In this document: one piece after another, positions 16,343 through 26,757 of the stretch
How positions within the stretch are numbered: the stretch's first letter is position 1
How the letters are laid out: the number at the start of each line of letters is the position of its first letter
DNA from: Coraliomargarita sp.
GTDB taxonomy: Bacteria > Verrucomicrobiota > Verrucomicrobiia > Opitutales > Coraliomargaritaceae
Assembly (NCBI GenBank): GCA_965216325.1
Contig: OZ244160.1
Location: forward strand, 1,440,001 to 1,504,000
Reading direction: 5' to 3'
Length of the DNA: 64,000 nucleotides
Notes under the pieces: generated by a model
Database searches by the model: none
What the model was told of the DNA's origin: nothing
What the model saw: the letters and a program-made list of their open reading frames with translations, nothing else
Program-made: the position numbers and the translations under genes

Positions 16343-16744
16343 TTATTGCTGGGCCTGATAGATCACGTCCTCAGCAACGAGGACATTGTCCGCACGAACC
16401 ACGCGCTTATTGCCATCGGCGAGAACTAAGACTTTCGGCTTCCAGCTTTTTGCTTCTTCAGCTTGAAACTGCGCGAAAGACATGATGACCAGCAGGTCGC
16501 CAATCGCACCGAGATGCGCAGCCGCACCGTTCAGCGAAATCGTGTGTGAGCCTTTGGGAGCTTCAATCGCGTAGGTCTCGAAGCGCTCGCCATTGGCGAT
16601 ATTGGCGACGAGAATCTTCTCATACGGCATGAGACCGATCTGTTCCATCAATGCAGAGTCAATCGCCAGACTGCCCTCATAATGAAGAGCGCGGTCCGTT
16701 ACCTCTGCGCGGAGCAGCTTGGATTTAAGGAGCGTAACTTGCAT
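16343..16744 (-). CDS. panD: Aspartate 1-decarboxylase
   Basis: [13 protein letters not shown] cleavage site, [15 protein letters not shown]. Confidence 0.95.
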
Positions 16745-16860
16745 AGATCTAATAGGTTCGGATTTAGACAAATTGTCAAAAGGGCGCACAAGTTGGCGAA
16801 TCCCTCTGAGTTTGGCAATTCTGGAATTATTGCCAGATTCTAGCAATTCGAATGCCTAAA

Positions 16861-17988
16861 TCAGGTTTCTTCGCGACGCACGACGACGGAAAACACGCAA
16901 GTTGTGCCCTGTCCCTGCTCACTTTGAATGCTGAGTTCGCCCCCAAGACGATCCGCAATGGTGCGGCAAAGCGAGAGCCCAACCCCGAGCCCTCCATGCG
17001 TGCGCTTGAGCGAGGAATCCTCTTGTGAGAAAGCATCGTAAATACGACCACTCTGAAGATAATCCGGATCAATCCCCGGGCCAGTGTCCTTAATTTCGAA
17101 GCGCAATTTTACATTCGAGTCTGCTAGAGACTCAAAGGAAACCGACAGCGTAACCTGCCCCTCTGCCGTGAATTTGACCGCATTATGCAGCAGTTTACGC
17201 AAAGCGATTCGAATCTCGTCCTCCGGACCTGAGACAAATTGAGGCACATCCGATGGAATATCCGTAACAAGGTCGACCAAGTCCTTGGGTTTCTCGTCAT
17301 TCACCAACTTGATCATCATCGTCGCCGGGTTAAACGAGCCGGACGAGACGTCCTCCTCACCCATGGAAAGCCGGGCATAAGTGAAAATGTCCTGCACATG
17401 CCCGAAATAATCCTTACTACAATCACGAATAGTCCCGAGGAATTCCTTCTGTTCCTCGTCCAGTTCGGTATCCTCCAGCAAATCGAGAAAACCCAAGATG
17501 CCATTCATAGGCGTATTCAACTCGTGGCTGACAATCTCCAGAAAATTAGTCTTCGCCGCATTCACATCGTTGCGGATCACGGTGTCCTGCCGCGTATTAA
17601 ACAGAAAGCTTTCATAGCAACGTCCGACGACGGTCTGAATGTGATCGAGGTCAAAAGGCTTCTTTAAATACTCGGATGCCCCCAGCGAAATCGCCTGCCG
17701 AGCCGTCTCCAGTGTCTCATACGCAGTCAACACAATGACCTCGGTATACTTATCGAGCTTCTTTACCTCACGGAGCACATCAATGCCACTCATGCCACGC
17801 ATCCGAATGTCGGTAATGACCAAGTCGAAGGGTTGCTCGGCCGAGAACTCCACCGCCTCTTCTCCCGATGTGGCAATGGTCACATCGTAGTCATCGCAAA
17901 AGATCATATTCAGCGATTGGCGTGGGCCTTCCTCATCATCGACGACGAGCATTCGTTTGGTTGCTAGAGCAGAGTGGTCTTCGGTCAT
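16861..17988 (-). CDS. Soluble receiver-histidine kinase hybrid (REC-HisKA-HATPase)
   Basis: LVVDDE...VITDIRM...LTA...[32 protein letters not shown]. Confidence 0.92.
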
Positions 17989-18085
17989 GAGCGGTTCGGT
18001 TGGTAGAAAGTTAATATCGAGCAATCACTGCTACAATGATTCGGTAGTACACGGTTCAGCGTCAATCAATCCATCTTTCGTTGCG

Positions 18086-19531
18086 CTACAAACTGGGTGA
18101 CGGATCCATTTGTAGGTTCAATTTTAACCTGATCGCACGGACCACTGCGGTCACATCAAAGGGCTTCTGAATTACAAGGTCACCTTCGGCCACACGACCA
18201 TCCGCACACAGCATGCGCTTATTCCGAGCACTCGAATATGCCAACTGGACCGCGCCCTGCAGGACCGCCTGTAGCCCGCGTATACGCTCAAGAACTTCCG
18301 GCTCAAAGCGGTCCAAATCGAACAGCAAACAATCCACGGCCCCAGACGCGATCAAATCAGCAGCTTCATCCGCGTGCGCACAATACATCACATGCGCAGC
18401 ATCTTCGAGCAATACGCTTAAACTATCTGCAATCGGTTCATATGCATCCAGCACCAACAAATTCGGACGTAGCGCACGAACGGCCTGCTCCAGCCCAGAG
18501 CGAGCCATCTCAACAACATGCGCCCAACTCTGAGCGACCTCATCATGCTCTGGCTGAAAAACTGTCAGCTTTAAATCCTCCAATTGAACATCCCTCAACT
18601 CAGGCCCAAGCTTTCGGCGCACCTGTGATAACGTCTGCCCCGGAAAAATACAGGCACACACATAGGCATCCAACGGCTGAATCAAATCTGCACTTAACTC
18701 CACAGACAACTGACTTTGCTTCAAGGACGCATATAATACGCCCGCCTGTTGCTTCGACTCAAGGAGCGCGACACTGACTGGCGAATTCTGATATTTACCA
18801 CGATAATACTCACGCTCTAAAGCCCCAAGCAGTTTAGACCGACGCTTACTCAAATCGTAAATAACGTATGCCGAGACCATCCCCGTACCGGGGTCGAAAC
18901 ATCTGCGAGCCGCAAATAGAAAGCGCCCTTCGACTTCAAAGTGCGCGTCAGCACCATTGCCAACGCAGTCTTGAAGCGCAAGAAGCACATCACATCGCTC
19001 GGGATGCTGCGGTTCACTCACTAGGCCAAGTTGCTTCCAAGCCAAGGCATTACCTGACATCAGATCGCCTGCAGCATCAAAACACAAAATACCCAACGGC
19101 AACTGATCGATCAGAAACTGCAGTACTTTAATCTGACGCTCCGTATGGCGCTGCTCCTTCGCCCGCCCATATAAGGCCGCGAGAAAATCTGCCATCGAGC
19201 CCATCAAACGCAAATCTTCCGCACCAAACGGACGCTGATCTTTACGACCCGAAACACGAAGAAAGCCGCCTTCTGCAGCACCTGACAAGGGAAGCACAAC
19301 GCGCCCCTGCTCAAAAACACGAGCCGATGACTCGCCATCGGCATTCAGCTCATCCTCGATCAGGAAGCTCCCCCTCAAATATGGGTCAGCCTCCACCGCA
19401 TTGCTAAGCGAATGACAGAAGCCTTGAAAGTCCGAGAATGAGCCAATTGCCCGCGCAAAACGCCGATACGACTCGGACAGTGACGCAGCCGTCATTTCAA
19501 TCGGCGCTGTATGTTCTTCAGACGGTTTCAT
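18086..19531 (-). CDS. Multidomain signalling protein: GAF-like, PAS-like, degenerate GGDEF-like, C-terminal REC-like
   Basis: GFLRVSGRK..RPFGAEDLRLM; QLPLGILCFD; LEREYYRGK..SPVSVALL with no GGDEF; CLLFDLD...QKPFD. Confidence 0.6.
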   Translation of the reverse strand: MKPSEEHTAPIEMTAASLSESYRRFARAIGSFSDFQGFCHSLSNAVEADPYLRGSFLIEDELNADGESSARVFEQGRVVLPLSGAAEGGFLRVSGRKDQRPFGAEDLRLMGSMADFLAALYGRAKEQRHTERQIKVLQFLIDQLPLGILCFDAAGDLMSGNALAWKQLGLVSEPQHPERCDVLLALQDCVGNGADAHFEVEGRFLFAARRCFDPGTGMVSAYVIYDLSKRRSKLLGALEREYYRGKYQNSPVSVALLESKQQAGVLYASLKQSQLSVELSADLIQPLDAYVCACIFPGQTLSQVRRKLGPELRDVQLEDLKLTVFQPEHDEVAQSWAHVVEMARSGLEQAVRALRPNLLVLDAYEPIADSLSVLLEDAAHVMYCAHADEAADLIASGAVDCLLFDLDRFEPEVLERIRGLQAVLQGAVQLAYSSARNKRMLCADGRVAEGDLVIQKPFDVTAVVRAIRLKLNLQMDPSPSL

Positions 19532-19549
19532 AGAATCCAGTACTAGGCC

Positions 19550-21691
19550 CTAGTCACAAGGCAGAGAGATTCGAAAACATGTGCCATGATTCAGCTCAGA
19601 ACTGACCGTAATATGTCCTTGGTGACGCTCAATGATTTTACTCACAATTGCCAGCCCCAGGCCGGTCCCGGCAGAGCCATGCCGAGCTCCGGTATCACGC
19701 GAGGTAGCAAACGGGTCGAAGATACGGTCCTGAAGGTCTTTGGAGATTCCCGGCCCATTGTCTGATATCTCCATCTCTAGCCAACGCTTCCGCTCATAGC
19801 GCCCTCCGCCACGCAAACTTGCCCGAAATGTGATCAAGCCCAATTCAGGTCGTTCTCCCCATTCACTAATCGCATTGATGCCATTCTCAATGATGTTGCG
19901 AACCACCTGTATCAGCTGCTCCAAATCTGCGTGTAATCTCGGCATATCTTTATCAAGCACGACCTCTAGCTGAACATTCTCAAGTGCTAAGCGCCCACTC
20001 ACCCCCGATTGAGCTTCAAAAATGACATCACGGATCGCAACACTCTCCATCGGACGCTTAGCATCCTGCGCAAAGGCAGAAACCCCCTCTACAATACCAA
20101 AGATTCGCTTTACATCACGTTGCACCGTAGCACTGAATTCTTCCGTCAACTTAAGTTCGGTCGGATTCTTCTTCAACAAACTCGTCATCGTTCGAACCGA
20201 AACCAATGGATTGCGTAACTCATGCGACAAGCCCGCAGCCATCGTCCCCAGAGAAACCAATTTCTCGACCTGATTGGACATCCGCTCCATCTCCCGAGAC
20301 TTAATGGTTAAGGCCAACTCTGCACAAAGATTTTCGAGCAATATTAGATCAACATCTGAGAAGGCCCCCGAACGGCGACTCGCACCGAGGACTAAGAAGC
20401 CATACAAGCTACCCTGAACTCCGATCGGCAAAAAGACATCCGAACTACGAAAGGGCAGATCCGAGTTAAACAGAGCCTGAAAGTTACTCCGAAAAGAACT
20501 CGATCGTTCCATCTTTTCCTCAAGGAAAATCGCATGACGTTGCCCCCGCAGGAAATCAACCAGCACTTCCAAGTTCGCACTTTCAATCGTTTTGACCGGC
20601 GTCCGCTCCCCTTGTATCGCCCGACATTCAAAACTAGAAGCCAAATCCCTGCGCACATAAACGGATGCAAAATCTAAACTCATTGCCCCGAAAATTCGCT
20701 CAACGACTACATCATAGACATCTCCTTCCGCTAGGCTTGAAACCACATCATCTGAAAGTTGACGCAATTCTTGGCGATACCCAAGCCTTCCCGAAATCAA
20801 TCGAGTCTGAATCAAATCATCAACATAACGAACAACAGGAGGGCATACAAACATCAACAGGGCACTAAGCAGTGTAAGCGCAGGCCACCAAAACAAAAAT
20901 GAACTTGGTGAAAAATCGACATAAGCAGCCTTGAGGACCAGAACCAATCCGACGGCGCAGAGCGCACCAAAAATAATTGAGAACAAAATCAGCCCCAAAA
21001 TCCGAAAAGCCATCTCACTGAAATCAAGGATGCGATATTTCAACATCGTATACCCTAAACCCATGAGATAGACAATCACCAGACCATGGCCAAAGGGCGG
21101 CACTTGAATCTCAAACCAAAGCAAAAAATTAGTCGAACCTCCTGCAAATCCGACTGCTGTCCCAATAAGTATGTAACGAAGTTTGTTCTTTGCCTCGATC
21201 TCCGACTTGCAGTATGTGTGAAACAGTAAGCCCACCCCCAAAACAGACATTAAGACATAGCCGCCAATGTAAACAGGAAACAAAACGCCGGGGACAGGCC
21301 AAAATTCAAAGCCCAAACGAGGTTCGACGCCTAAGACAATAAACTTCCCAAAATTTAAGCAGAATAAAATGGCTGCTAGCAGATATCCAGCATAGGCGAA
21401 CGCACGAAACTTCAGATTTTCGGTCAGATTAATTACAAAATGAAAATATGCGTACGGCACGAAGATGGATGCCCCTACCAAATACTTCACCCAGTATACT
21501 GCAGCAGCCTCCGTTTCAGCCAATTGCCATAACATATGAGCAAGAGCCCAGCAAAATATCGTAAAATTGAAGAAACAAAAAGTCTGATTCTTTCCATCGT
21601 CCAACTTAAGACCCTTAAGTAAAACGGATGCTATAAAATACAGCGTCAGGGCAGAAATAAAAAATGAACTAACAATCAAATATGCGATCAT
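19550..21691 (-). CDS. Membrane sensor histidine kinase (multi-TM N-terminus, GAF, HisKA, HATPase)
   Basis: About 290 aa hydrophobic N-terminus; GFLVLG...[33 protein letters not shown]. Confidence 0.93.
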
Positions 21692-23373
21692 CTTACAACC
21701 GATATTAAATTTGCCTGATCGCCAAAAGACCTAAAGAACTGCGCCCCCGAAAAACCCGCCAACCTAACCAGGTCAACCAGCTCTTCCTCACTATAAAACA
21801 CATAATGCCCCTCATCTTCTTTCAGCTGAATTGCGCCCGCAGCACTTAACAAACTCCTAGCAGAGTCTAGCGCATCTTCGGAGTCTGCTTCAGTAACAAA
21901 GCCCTTGTATATCAATGATAAATCACAGTACGGCTTCATACTTGAGACAATCATCTTACCCCCGGGCTTGAGTACACGATGAAGTTCAGACAATAAGACA
22001 CTGGGCTGCTTTAGGTAGGAGATTAATAGGCTGCAGCAGACTCGATCAATTGAAGCATCTGCGAAAGGCAAGCGCACTTGACTGGCTCCTCGACCATCTA
22101 ACTCATCTAAATCGAATCGATAATACAACATATCCAATCCCTCTCGGCCATGAATTTCATGAGTTAATGAGGAATGGCGTCGATGCGCCTCCGATAGGCC
22201 TTTGCCCGTAAGATCCAGACCAAAATATGTGGTCGGCAATTCCAGTGGATCTCGATTCTGCAAAGCTAAATCTCGTAAACACCAAGCGCCAAACATCCCA
22301 TTACCGCAACCACAATCCAAATAGACGAGTCCCGGTTCGGTAACTCCTAGGCATGAACCGATCAACGAAAGATAATCCCTGTAAGCACCGACAGCTTCAA
22401 GCATCTTGTATTTATCTAAATATTTTGCCCAAAAGTCCCCTTCACTCTCTCGAAGAGGGGCCATCGCCCTAAGGCGTTCGCGCTCGACCTTATTCTGACG
22501 AAAGACCTCCCGCCGGTCTGGGCTTAAGATTTCATACAGTTCATCCTGCCCTGCAAAACGCCCATGCCGACTCACATACACTGCCTGCATAATGGCTTCT
22601 ATCGCTAACTTCGGGTTCTCCATCAACTCGTGCATCGCGCCATCGACCAGCCGCAACTTTACACGTTCCGACTTAGCCGCCAAAGCATCTACTTCAGCCA
22701 ATTCAACCCATGCGTCTCTCTTCGCCGGAAAAAGAAATATGTCGCACTTAGCCTTACAGACATCCTCTAGAGTTCCATCTAGATCCTGCATGTCCGAATC
22801 AACAGCGGTCTTAAGAAACTGGTCTATATTGACTTCATGGCCCAAAATATCCCCAACACCTTGAATCGCTCCATCCATGTAGGCATTCACGATATCCTTC
22901 TGGCAAATCGTAGTGATTGTTGAGCGAAAGTTGACAATTGGAACCAAACATACCAAGCGCTCAATTCGATGATCGAGACTCGCAGCGCGAATCGCACAAC
23001 GCCCCGACATACTATTAGCCTGCAGCGTTACTGAGTGCACATGATGTTGAATCTCAAGAAAATCAATTGCAGCGAGTATATCATCCACTCCATTCGGAAG
23101 CGTATAATTCTGAATTTCGCCCTCGCTTTCTCCAATGTGATTTGTCTGGTCAAAGCGCAACACACGGAACCCATTTACAGCAAAGTAATAAGCGAGTTGT
23201 AAGTTATTCTTTTTCGACTGCCCATACTTCGGGGCCATCACAACAAAAGGAGCACTCGGCATCTTACTAGGCGTGTCGATGTACCCAACAATCTTCTTAC
23301 CATTGCGAGAAGGGAAGACAACCACTTCGCTCCGGATACTTATCTCGCTGGCATCCTGAACCTCAATCGACAT
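21688..23373 (-). CDS. LuxD-like acyl-ACP thioesterase fused to class I SAM methyltransferase
   Basis: [19 protein letters not shown], nucleophile ANSMS (AxSxS), [13 protein letters not shown]-terminal [30 protein letters not shown]. Confidence 0.85.
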
Positions 23374-23570
23374 GACTAGTATTGATATTCACTGCGCGCA
23401 TCAGAGCCAGCTATGTATTCAATTTCAAATACAAAATACGCTAGAGACCGCATAAAATGGCTAAAATTCACCTAATTTGAAAAGAATTGAAGTTGCACTA
23501 ACGCTCAATAAGTCTCAGAAATATCAAAACCGCGCTCAGCGGCAAATCACAACACTGCGCTACCTTTTGA

Positions 23571-25574
23571 GTGACCCACCTATTGTTCATCACGTCTGGA
23601 GATGACATCCCGGAACATCTACGGGAGGCATTCACAGCGCCGGAGATACGCACGGTCACGCGAACAACCGTCAGTGAAGTTCAACAAGCACTGCAACATG
23701 GAGCCTTCGACATCGCCCTGCTCCATGGCGATTTTCAGAGTGATCACTTGCGACAAAGTATCGAAGACCTACGCGTACACTCGGCAAACGTCTTCATCAT
23801 TGCAATCGCAACAACTTACGACGAGTCAGACGAAGCAGTCGCGTTCGATGCAGGCGCAAATCTGTATTTTGCCGAGCCTATTCCAACGCAGACGATTACG
23901 CGCCTAGTGCAGAGTCAGGCAGCCGGCACACAGGAAGCCCCAAGCCAGACAATTCGCCATAGCCACCAGGAATCGGCAGACGACCACTCGACCGCTTCCA
24001 CCCTAAAAACCATTCGCGATTTCTCCAATATCCTGAGCTACAGCTTGGATTACAAGGCCTTCACGCAGCAGTTTATCCTCAAGCTGCGTGACCACATAAG
24101 TTTTAGTCGAATTGGAATTTTTCTCGAAGCCTCAGCCAAACAATCTCTGGTTAAGAGCAAACCGACCAAGCCGCTGGAATGCGTCGCATCCCTTGGACTA
24201 CCGTCCGACCTCGTCGACTGCTTTCAGCTCAGTCGATCAGTTGGCATCGGGCGCACGCTCTGCGAACACCCCCGGATCTTAAGTAAGCAGCAGCATACCC
24301 AGAACCCGTTTGATCATGATGCGTCCATTCGCAAGGAATTTGACATCCTTGGCTGCCACACCGCAGTGCCGATCACAGACCGCGAGCAATTAATCGGACT
24401 CGCGGTGCTCAATGGACCCGTCACCGGCCGTCACTACTCGGAGGCAGAACTGCAACTCCTCTTCATTCTGATGGAAGAGCTCGGACTTGCGATACGTAAT
24501 AGCCGCTTACACACCGAGCTCGCGAGCCACGGACAACTCATTGACAGTGTACTGAGCTCCATGTCCAGCGGTGCAATTGTCATCGGCGAAGACCTGAGTA
24601 TTCTCTACACGAATCGGTCAGCCAATGAATTTCTGAAGCTACCCAGGCTCGACAACACGCCACCGCTGTGGGCAGATTTACCCACCAAGCTTGCGGGCCC
24701 GCTGCATCGTGCAGTCGAAAAAGGTGAGCTCCCTGAGCCCTTCACGCTGAATGCAGCCGACGGCACGATCTACCGGGCCTCAGTCATTCCATTCACTCAG
24801 GAAGATGAATTAGCCCTCCTTCCACGGCCAGTCATGGTGATCATTGAAGACTTCACTAACATTGAAGCCAGTAAAGCATCCGAAGTCGCCAACACACGCA
24901 ATGAAGTCGTCAGCCTCATCGCCAAACGCTTTGCCCATGAGATCCGCAACTCGCTGGTGCCACTGTCAACGCATGCACAATTGATCGACAAGAAAATCGA
25001 GCAGCCCGCGTTTCAAGCATCACTCAAGTCCGCTCTGCTCAAGGAAACCAACCGCATTAAGCGCTTCAGCGAACAAATGCTCTATCTGGCGCAAGACTCG
25101 ATCTCAGCCGACAACGGACTCGACCTGGTTCAGTTAATCCACGCTGCGTTCAGTGCAGCAAAGAAACATTTAGACGCTCGCGAAGTCGAACTGGTCACCA
25201 CTGGATCGCCAGAAGATTGCCTGGCCAAGGGAAATACTGAAGCACTCAGTTTTGTCTTCCAGGAGCTCTTCCTCAACGCGATCCAATCACAGGGAGGCCC
25301 AGGCACCATCGAAATCGAAATCACAACTGGCGGAGCCGATACCCTGCGCATTCGAATCAAAGACAGCGGACCGGGCTTCTCCCAAGAAGTCATGCGTCAG
25401 GCCACTGAACCTTTCTACACAACACGCAACACCGGAGTGGGATTGGGACTTTCCATTGCACAGAAAATCATCCAAGAGCACAACGGCCAGCTACGCCTGA
25501 ATGCACGCACTCCCGGAGCAGAATGGGATATTGAAATCGAACTACAATCACTACTCACCACGACCAATGGATAA
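23571..25574 (+). CDS. Cytoplasmic histidine kinase (pseudo-REC, GAF, PAS-like, HisKA, HATPase)
   Basis: GTG start; FAHEIRNSL, NAIQ, DSGPGF, PFYTT, GVGLGL; REC reads DIALLHG and AEP. Confidence 0.88.
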   Translation: MTHLLFITSGDDIPEHLREAFTAPEIRTVTRTTVSEVQQALQHGAFDIALLHGDFQSDHLRQSIEDLRVHSANVFIIAIATTYDESDEAVAFDAGANLYFAEPIPTQTITRLVQSQAAGTQEAPSQTIRHSHQESADDHSTASTLKTIRDFSNILSYSLDYKAFTQQFILKLRDHISFSRIGIFLEASAKQSLVKSKPTKPLECVASLGLPSDLVDCFQLSRSVGIGRTLCEHPRILSKQQHTQNPFDHDASIRKEFDILGCHTAVPITDREQLIGLAVLNGPVTGRHYSEAELQLLFILMEELGLAIRNSRLHTELASHGQLIDSVLSSMSSGAIVIGEDLSILYTNRSANEFLKLPRLDNTPPLWADLPTKLAGPLHRAVEKGELPEPFTLNAADGTIYRASVIPFTQEDELALLPRPVMVIIEDFTNIEASKASEVANTRNEVVSLIAKRFAHEIRNSLVPLSTHAQLIDKKIEQPAFQASLKSALLKETNRIKRFSEQMLYLAQDSISADNGLDLVQLIHAAFSAAKKHLDAREVELVTTGSPEDCLAKGNTEALSFVFQELFLNAIQSQGGPGTIEIEITTGGADTLRIRIKDSGPGFSQEVMRQATEPFYTTRNTGVGLGLSIAQKIIQEHNGQLRLNARTPGAEWDIEIELQSLLTTTNG

Positions 25575-26757
25575 GCGAATCCACACACTCTTCACCCTCG
25601 GCAGCAGCCTTCTCCTCACCGGATCCATCGCAACGGCAGCTGCGACGCGAGTCGCCTACATCGATCCATTTGCCACTGCCCGTGGGAATGCATTTACCGC
25701 AACGGCCGACAACCCATCTGCGGTCTTCTACAATGCAGCAGGTCTGACGCAATTAGAAGGCAGTCAGGTGCAAGCCAACGTGTTCGCGATCTCTCTCGCC
25801 TACGAACAGGACAGTAGCCTTGGACTCGGCAGTCAGGATATGGACGATGACTTCCAACCTATCCCCAGCTTCTTCGCTGCTCATCGCTTTGAGAATAGCG
25901 ATATCGCGCTGGGCTTTGGCGCCTACGCACCGTTCGCCCTGGGCTCCGATTGGGGCAGTGATGCTGACTTTGCAGTCATTGACCCGCGGGTTCCCTACGA
26001 AGGTGAACTCGCCTACGTCAAATACCACCTCGCTCTCGCATGGCAGATTACTGAAACGCTCTCTGTTGCAATCGGCACGAGCTACGACGATGTCGATCTG
26101 GAGGTGAAAGCCAACGCACTGAAATTTGATAGCGATGGCGACGACATCGGCTTTTCCGCATCCGTTCTCTGGCAACCGAATGAACGGCATTCCTTCGGCC
26201 TCAACTACCAAGCCCGCACGAACATCAGGCATGAAGGTAAAGCCGACCTCCTCGTCGCACCAGACACCTTTCTACGCTTCGACGCGGAAGCCGATTTGGA
26301 CTACCCCGAGTCAATCGTTTTCGGATACTCCTACCGCCCTAATGAGCATTGGAATATCGAGTTCAACCTCGACTGGACGAACTGGGACATCATCGACACA
26401 TTCGACCTAAAGGGTCCTCCCGGTGATCTTGGCTATGTTTTAAACTGGGAATCTGCCTTTATCTGGGAACTCGGAGCCACTCGCTATTTTGACAACGGCT
26501 GGCACATCAGCGCAGGCTACACCTTCGTGGAAGATGCCGTGCCGGACGAAGGCTTCTTGCCTATAGTGCCAGACAATGACCGCCATTTCTTCTCGATAGG
26601 CGTCGGGCAAACGATCGGGCAATTCTACTGGCAAGCAACTTACCAGTATACCTACTCAGACGAACGCTCGGTCAACAACCCGAACCTACCCTCCATCGCA
26701 GGAGATTATGACTTAGACAGTCAAGCAGTTGCGTTCTCGCTCGGCTATCGCTGGTAA
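25567..26757 (+). CDS. FadL/TodX family outer-membrane hydrophobic-compound transporter
   Basis: Signal peptide; ARGNAFTATADNPSAVFYNAAGLTQL hatch; beta-strand pattern; C-terminal YRW; start overlaps kinase 3' end. Confidence 0.9.
   Translation: MDKRIHTLFTLGSSLLLTGSIATAAATRVAYIDPFATARGNAFTATADNPSAVFYNAAGLTQLEGSQVQANVFAISLAYEQDSSLGLGSQDMDDDFQPIPSFFAAHRFENSDIALGFGAYAPFALGSDWGSDADFAVIDPRVPYEGELAYVKYHLALAWQITETLSVAIGTSYDDVDLEVKANALKFDSDGDDIGFSASVLWQPNERHSFGLNYQARTNIRHEGKADLLVAPDTFLRFDAEADLDYPESIVFGYSYRPNEHWNIEFNLDWTNWDIIDTFDLKGPPGDLGYVLNWESAFIWELGATRYFDNGWHISAGYTFVEDAVPDEGFLPIVPDNDRHFFSIGVGQTIGQFYWQATYQYTYSDERSVNNPNLPSIAGDYDLDSQAVAFSLGYRW

Follow-up and report, generated by a model that had tools for sequence, protein, structure and literature searches.

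According to the excerpted text of PMC8578825, the phc operon encodes the methyltransferase PhcB (464-468 amino acids, aa), the sensor kinase PhcS, PhcR (368-374 aa), which consists of a receiver and a kinase domain, and PhcQ (336-337 aa), which consists of a receiver. Neither PhcR nor PhcQ is given a DNA-binding domain in that text, and the output regulator is encoded outside the operon. The Phc system is called genus-specific in the excerpted text of PMC9102662. Here, we describe a six-gene module in a 64,000-nucleotide (nt) stretch of DNA from Coraliomargarita sp., a marine-type verrucomicrobium (assembly GCA_965216325.1, contig OZ244160.1, positions 1,440,001 to 1,504,000), hereafter called the window. 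The module encodes a fusion of a LuxD-like hydrolase/transferase with an S-adenosylmethionine (SAM) methyltransferase next to several signalling proteins and, when likened by composition, is most likely a variant of Phc-type lipid methyl-ester signalling. To our knowledge, the Phc system is the only one in which signalling by fatty-acid methyl esters has been shown by experiment, and we know of no account that settles the route from fatty-acid synthesis to the methyl ester for PhcB.

In CqsA/CqsS-type systems, a synthase gene lies beside the gene of a multi-transmembrane (multi-TM) kinase that senses a hydrophobic autoinducer. The module is similar to these systems in that a putative synthase is adjacent to a putative membrane receptor kinase, whereas it appears unrelated to them in the chemistry of its synthase and in its kinase families.

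Layout of the module and comparison with phc

The module spans positions 16861-26757 of the window. A preliminary description of this DNA, made from its letters, had claimed six genes in two divergent operons, and the open reading frames (ORFs) were confirmed at the following coordinates, with B, S, U and R forming the leftward operon and K and F the rightward one.

16861-18024, minus strand: R, 387 aa; Pfam Response_reg, HisKA and HATPase_c; soluble hybrid
18086-19531, minus strand: U, 481 aa; GAF-like, PAS, degenerate GGDEF-fold and atypical receiver parts (fold matches)
19550-21691, minus strand: S, 713 aa; Pfam HisKA_7TM, GAF, HisKA and HATPase_c; proposed receptor
21688-23373, minus strand: B, 561 aa; LuxD-like hydrolase/transferase and class I SAM methyltransferase; proposed signal synthase
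23374-23570, no strand: divergent intergenic region between B and K, 197 bp; presumed promoters of both operons
23571-25574, plus strand: K, 667 aa; pseudo-receiver, GAF, PAS-like region, HisKA and HATPase_c; cytoplasmic kinase
25501-26757, plus strand: F, 418 aa; Toluene_X/FadL outer-membrane channel family

Gene coupling was established in both operons. The stop codon of B and the start codon of S share the sequence ATGA, as read directly from the DNA. The likely true start of F is at 25567 (the second methionine), ahead of its signal peptide, and with this start the K stop and the F start overlap by 8 nt (ATGGATAA). Both the overlap of the membrane kinase gene with the fusion gene and that of the cytoplasmic kinase gene with the FadL-family gene had been claimed before.

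When the module and phc were compared by composition, not by homology, both were seen to combine in one operon a methyltransferase, a membrane kinase, a receiver-kinase protein and a receiver protein that lacks a DNA-binding domain. R has the domain composition of PhcR as described in the excerpt of PMC8578825, and the resemblance to phcBSRQ of Ralstonia that had been proposed for parts of the locus was borne out at this level. However, several differences were observed. B is 561 aa long and has an intact LuxD-type triad, compared with 464-468 aa for PhcB, and, judging from its length, PhcB cannot hold a full LuxD-like domain together with a 277-residue methyltransferase module. U (481 aa) carries GAF, PAS and degenerate GGDEF parts, compared with 336-337 aa for PhcQ. 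In addition, the last two genes are swapped in order and an extra operon (K-F) is present here. A diagnostic primer used to look for PhcB sequences had no match in genome contigs. A tblastn search against a plasmid collection returned generic methyltransferases only, with one Burkholderia match that is a 246-aa ORF, and no account of the domain structure of PhcB was found in a literature search.

Domains and residues of the six proteins

B matched two Pfam families above their gathering thresholds, as expected from the earlier claim of a LuxD-like/methyltransferase fusion. These are Acyl_transf_2/LuxD (PF02273; 97.9 bits, gathering 20.3, E-value 8.2e-28, residues 47-253) and Methyltransf_11 (PF08241; 46.6 bits, gathering 21.2, E-value 5.4e-12, residues 352-476). 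The LuxD-like part covers approximately residues 30-290, and the methyltransferase with its N-terminal helical extension covers approximately residues 285-561. Among solved structures, LuxD (1THT) was the best match of B (E-value 1e-20; residues 33-291), and the next structure reached 2.8e-08. In the 1THT alignment, S121, D220 and H248 of B correspond to S114, D211 and H241 of LuxD, so that the acylated serine and the aspartate and histidine positions are all aligned; Asp211 and His241 are the residues that we take to complete the LuxD triad with Ser114.

Residue conservation was analyzed in an alignment of 116 full-length close relatives of B and 20 proteins of other architectures. S121, D220 and H248 were invariant in 116/116 relatives and were kept in 18, 19 and 18 of the 20 others, respectively. 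SAM motif I (D353, G355 and G357) was invariant in both sets (116/116 and 20/20). The catalytic residues are intact in B.

The excerpted text of PMC6279958 describes that LuxD is acylated at Ser114, a residue of a classical triad, by the acyl group of an acyl carrier protein (acyl-ACP) or of coenzyme A (acyl-CoA), and that hydrolysis of the acyl-enzyme, which the partner LuxE enhances, then yields the free acid. B differs from LuxD in carrying a fused methyltransferase, whereas LuxD works together with LuxE, and no luxC or luxE was found near B in the module and its flanks. Judging from its sequence, B is probably a bifunctional enzyme, a Ser-Asp-His acyl hydrolase/transferase and a SAM methyltransferase, which would likely release a fatty acid and then methylate it. 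A search of literature listings found no LuxD-methyltransferase fusion and no such quorum sensing in Verrucomicrobia, in agreement with the preliminary description, which did not recognise the architecture as a characterised one.

S has hydrophobic TM segments across residues 1-290 (hydropathy scan), and HisKA_7TM and GAF domains were found, as claimed for a multi-TM GAF kinase. With PrsK and other HisKA_7TM kinases it shares its build, namely a multi-TM N-terminus, a GAF domain and a kinase core. However, S scored 91.9 bits against the PrsK PEP-CTERM kinase model TIGR02916 (cut-off 300), and the module contains no exosortase or PEP-CTERM genes. An assignment of S as PrsK was rejected on the TIGR02916 score.

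The other two kinases also agreed with what had been proposed for them, a receiver-histidine kinase hybrid (R) and a pseudo-receiver-GAF-PAS kinase (K). The canonical receiver residues are present in R (D28, D29, D72 and K121), and its H-box contains H167. K has no TM segments. Its Response_reg match was weak (E-value 0.0088), and the acceptor aspartate and the conserved lysine are replaced in the receiver-like N-terminus, as read from the sequence; the GAF, HisKA (H456) and HATPase_c domains and a PAS-like region are present. AtoS was the best NCBIfam match for S, for K and for the kinase of the second lineage described below; for the regulator next to the latter kinase it was AtoC, and all of these matches were under the cut-off. 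They may point to a remote relationship with kinases that sense short-chain fatty acids.

No Pfam or NCBIfam match was found across the 481 aa of U. The protein was modelled twice, as a whole (predicted local distance difference test score, pLDDT, 75.7; 8 sequences) and as residues 1-350 (pLDDT 88.2; 45 sequences). The fold matches are given below with their Z scores and root-mean-square deviations (rmsd).

U residues 12-144: GAF-like; Z 8.1 to 10.1, a range where common arrangements also score
U residues 145-228: PAS-like; Z 8 to 8.8, a range where common arrangements also score
U residues 229-350: GGDEF fold; Z 11.9, rmsd 2.4, 115 aligned, against 7e6g
U residues 354-474: receiver fold; Z 15.3, rmsd 2.2, 116 aligned, against 2qxy

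The GGDEF and receiver folds of U had been named in the preliminary description as a degenerate GGDEF/receiver protein, and the GAF-like and PAS parts are additional to it. The family consensus is GPxDA at the hairpin that matches the GG(D/E)EF site, with the placement of the motif read from the model and the alignment. As modelled, the GGDEF fold is degenerate and does not qualify as that of an active diguanylate cyclase. Across 8 homologs, the acceptor column of the receiver holds D in four and E in the other four, whereas KPF does not vary. In one family-level relative, the homolog of U (G144:C27:108110-109519) contains a single in-frame TGA.

F matched FadL/TodX (PF03349) over the whole barrel (133.3 bits, gathering 29.7, E-value 1.1e-38, residues 40-415), and it resembles this family in its barrel match and its signal peptide. 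Its score against the E. coli FadL equivalog was 34.1 bits (cut-off 585). Three FadL paralogs are present in the genome, and F is the poorest fit to the family model (127.8 bits vs 259.6 and 167.2). It differs from FadL/TodX proteins in being the most divergent of these paralogs and in being embedded among signalling genes.

Conservation of the module and its surroundings

A protein database search with B gave 291 matches among 8,000 scored, of which 120 were listed. More than 120 relatives were full-length, with 43-83% identity. The named relatives among those listed belong to Puniceicoccaceae, Coraliomargarita, Opitutaceae, Opitutus, Didemnitutus and 'Verrucomicrobia', and the named records include Coraliomargarita akajimensis and Thalassobacterium maritimum.

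When 201 genomes of the order were sampled, B was found in 9 genomes from 8 of the 103 genera, and its distribution is therefore patchy. Of the 9 genomes with B, 8 also have U, whereas U was not found in any of the remaining 192, which establishes the co-occurrence of the two genes; in the ninth genome (G187), B sits on a contig of 2,944 bases. Seven loci of this sample showed B-S-U in 7/7 and K-F-R in 5/7 cases.

A scan of species-representative genomes yielded 187 loci with a relative of B, and the best 80 were kept (79 from Verrucomicrobiota and one Desulfatiglandales record). Synteny was counted on these best 80 of the 187 loci, each test including only the loci with enough flank. S lies directly after B in 67/67 loci and U after S in 56/56, and K is divergent from B in 62/67; among the five exceptions, L032 carries a K-like ORF that is partial. 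F is present in 49/62 loci, where it is placed among the signalling genes. R is present in 38/41, in six of them after U (as in the family of the window) and in 32 after F or K. It is because the related genomes are not independent that these counts should be read as conservation and not as statistics; since the arrangement recurs in dozens of genomes, it is far beyond chance. The conserved synteny on which the preliminary description had made its reading depend was thus established, including the B-S pair of the second lineage described below. The module is a conserved and uncharacterised six-gene cluster of Opitutales-type Verrucomicrobiota. In a subgroup of Opitutia (L057, L072 and L090, and also L014 and L015), B-S-U is kept and no K, F or R was found within 7 kb upstream.

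The synthase family was also followed beyond Verrucomicrobiota. A profile of the methyltransferase domain was compared with 1.84 billion representatives and gave 18,690 matches at E-values of 1e-3 or lower, 880 at 1e-10 or lower and 167 at 1e-30 or lower. From the best 150 matches, 25 were sampled for a Pfam domain survey. A LuxD-type domain was found in 18/25 of these proteins, PilZ in 8/25, a START/polyketide-cyclase lipid-binding domain in 2/25 and REC-PAS in 2/25. Such N-terminal PilZ, START and REC-PAS additions appear typical of a controlled signal synthase. One of the 25 ORFs joins the methyltransferase to a HisKA_7TM region.

A second lineage was represented by 34 metagenome loci that were fetched with the PilZ-LuxD-methyltransferase protein P0322. 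In 26/34 loci the synthase gene is directly followed by an S homolog (approximately 30% identity; E-value approximately 1e-90), full-length where the contig allows. As for the other eight loci, three end 150 bases or less past the synthase, two encode a GAF-kinase that lacks the TM part, and three have no match in the 750-1,140 bases downstream. The S homolog of this lineage aligns with TIGR02916 over nearly its whole length (E-value 8.4e-43). In the two loci scanned (L101 and L102), a sigma-54 response regulator and a protein with a receiver and a part similar to phosphodiesterases of cyclic di-GMP (c-di-GMP) are encoded next, both under the equivalog cut-offs. Because B-S recurs in this lineage with other genes next to it, the synthase-kinase pair is regarded as the constant core, and the downstream wiring as lineage-dependent.

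The AtoC/NtrC-like sigma-54 regulator and the REC-phosphodiesterase-like gene lie at L101:7235-8833 and L102:13007-14152, so that transcriptional output is local there, unlike in the window. On another metagenome contig (L125:6929-11854), a single ORF of 1,642 aa covers both the synthase and the 7TM kinase, and protein P0296 joins a methyltransferase to a HisKA_7TM region. Either join could be genuine or could stem from an assembly or frameshift artefact. Two tandem synthase-like ORFs precede the kinase on the metagenome contig L115 (1-4329).

In the window, the module is flanked by housekeeping genes, namely panD and, at the opposite end, a gene of the uracil-DNA glycosylase family. The panD gene (aspartate decarboxylase; 16343-16846, minus strand) lies on the strand of R and begins 14 nt past the R stop, and this order of R and panD is also seen in the family-level relatives L016, L017, L023, L025, L087-L089, L091 and L100. 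Because of the short gap, the shared strand and the order kept in relatives, panD may be co-transcribed with the signalling operon. A consensus promoter scan gave results at chance level (9 promoter-like sites vs a shuffle mean of 9.7), and the 18 terminator-like sites of the same scan (shuffle mean 13.7) were also judged to be at chance level. The promoters of 23374-23570 can therefore only be presumed.

The G+C content is 0.454 and 0.482 over S and B (20001-24000 of the window), compared with approximately 0.51-0.59 for the remaining parts of the window. Such a dip could reflect the coding of a membrane protein or a foreign origin. The term 'island' used in the preliminary description was found to be misleading, and a mobile island was rejected despite the lower G+C at 20-24 kb. 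This is because the module adjoins panD at the same place in family-level relatives and no mobile features are visible.

Proposed signalling and alternative explanations

We propose that the six genes form a lipid-signal module, a reading that we rank first among those considered and regard as evenly poised between right and wrong. The presumed substrate is an acyl chain, which B would take off through Ser121; B would then free the acid and pass it to its own C-terminal SAM-dependent methyltransferase. The presumed product, able to exit the cell, would be the methyl ester of a fatty acid or another methylated lipid closely related to it. S, the translationally coupled multi-TM GAF kinase, would be the kinase that binds this ligand and would act as the membrane receptor for the ester. 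The divergent operon would supply a dedicated FadL-type passage through the outer membrane (F) for the hydrophobic molecule, together with the cytoplasmic kinase K. With K also processing the phosphoryl signal, R and U would relay or integrate it to targets encoded elsewhere, although the direction of phosphotransfer is presumed like the roles of the proteins, and the circuit may serve to measure cell density.

Several observations weigh against this proposal. No DNA-binding output is encoded in the module according to Pfam and NCBIfam scans of its proteins, and no match named PhcB was found among the matches listed in the protein database searches. B scored 91 bits against the NCBIfam LuxD equivalog NF052253 (fatty acid reductase transferase subunit; cut-off 420), and because this score is far under the cut-off, the substrate of B may differ from myristoyl-ACP. 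The methyltransferase part fitted only generic class I models of Pfam and NCBIfam, and a cluster look-up of this domain gave generic methyltransferase clusters only. Since the specific models for the fatty-acid O-methyltransferase Mtf2 (23.1 bits, cut-off 400) and the malonyl-ACP O-methyltransferase BioC (22.4 bits, cut-off 184.95) were far under their cut-offs, it is from the fusion that we infer carboxyl methylation. Furthermore, FadL-type import would not be essential to the core B-S-U, because F was not found in 13/62 loci and K in 5/67.

The lipid made by B might instead stay in the membrane or the cytoplasm and tune S and K as an internal lifestyle switch linked to c-di-GMP, without any diffusible density signal. 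The degenerate GGDEF fold of U and the cytoplasmic location of K are in line with such a switch, as are the absence of an encoded export function from the module and the fusion of the synthase to PilZ in other lineages, where a REC c-di-GMP phosphodiesterase-like protein lies downstream. However, a dedicated FadL-type channel sits among the signalling genes in 49/62 loci, which suggests that the molecule crosses the envelope, and it is established chemistry that a fatty acid loses its charge on methyl esterification, which makes diffusion easier. We consider a purely internal switch unlikely, although it keeps some weight. A module for the uptake and sensing of an exogenous hydrophobic ester or fatty acid was judged to be distinctly unlikely. 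In such a module, FadL would import the compound, the hydrolase part of B would de-esterify or transacylate it, the methyltransferase would modify it and the kinases would report it. FadL proteins import hydrophobic substrates according to the family annotation, many alpha/beta hydrolases are esterases, and B has weak esterase and lactonase matches. On the other hand, the best hydrolase match by far is LuxD, which uses acyl-ACP (1e-20 vs 2.8e-08), no catabolic genes are found in the module, the flanks being panD and the uracil-DNA glycosylase family gene, and the core B-S-U persists in the 13/62 loci where F was not found, with the B-S pair also present in the second lineage.

We see very little prospect that B works like a BioC/BioH pair, or methylates and demethylates another carboxylate, possibly of a protein, in cofactor synthesis or kinase adaptation. 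One source annotates relatives of B as 'pimeloyl-ACP methyl ester carboxylesterase / SAM-dependent methyltransferase', and B has a weak BioC match. However, this match is far under the cut-off, no BioH model was among the family matches listed, no biotin genes lie nearby, and the constant partner of B is a membrane kinase. A BioC/BioH identity for B was rejected on these scores and on gene context.

On the reading of the six genes as a lipid-signal module, the acyl-ACP-offloading domain that B would carry connects fatty-acid synthesis with methyl-ester formation by a route that is concrete and testable. More broadly, and only tentatively, B and the 7TM-GAF kinase may be a pair of signal-maker and receptor for lipid methyl esters with members in several phyla, often under c-di-GMP control through PilZ. 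The Phc system of Ralstonia would then be a reduced branch of it, and the module would be the first system of a quorum-sensing type to be defined in Verrucomicrobia, with an outer-membrane channel of its own. If the product is a diffusible signal, the module would define a synthase-receptor family across several phyla that is linked to c-di-GMP, and it would open the study of cell-to-cell communication in Verrucomicrobia, which are widespread in soil, freshwater and the sea.

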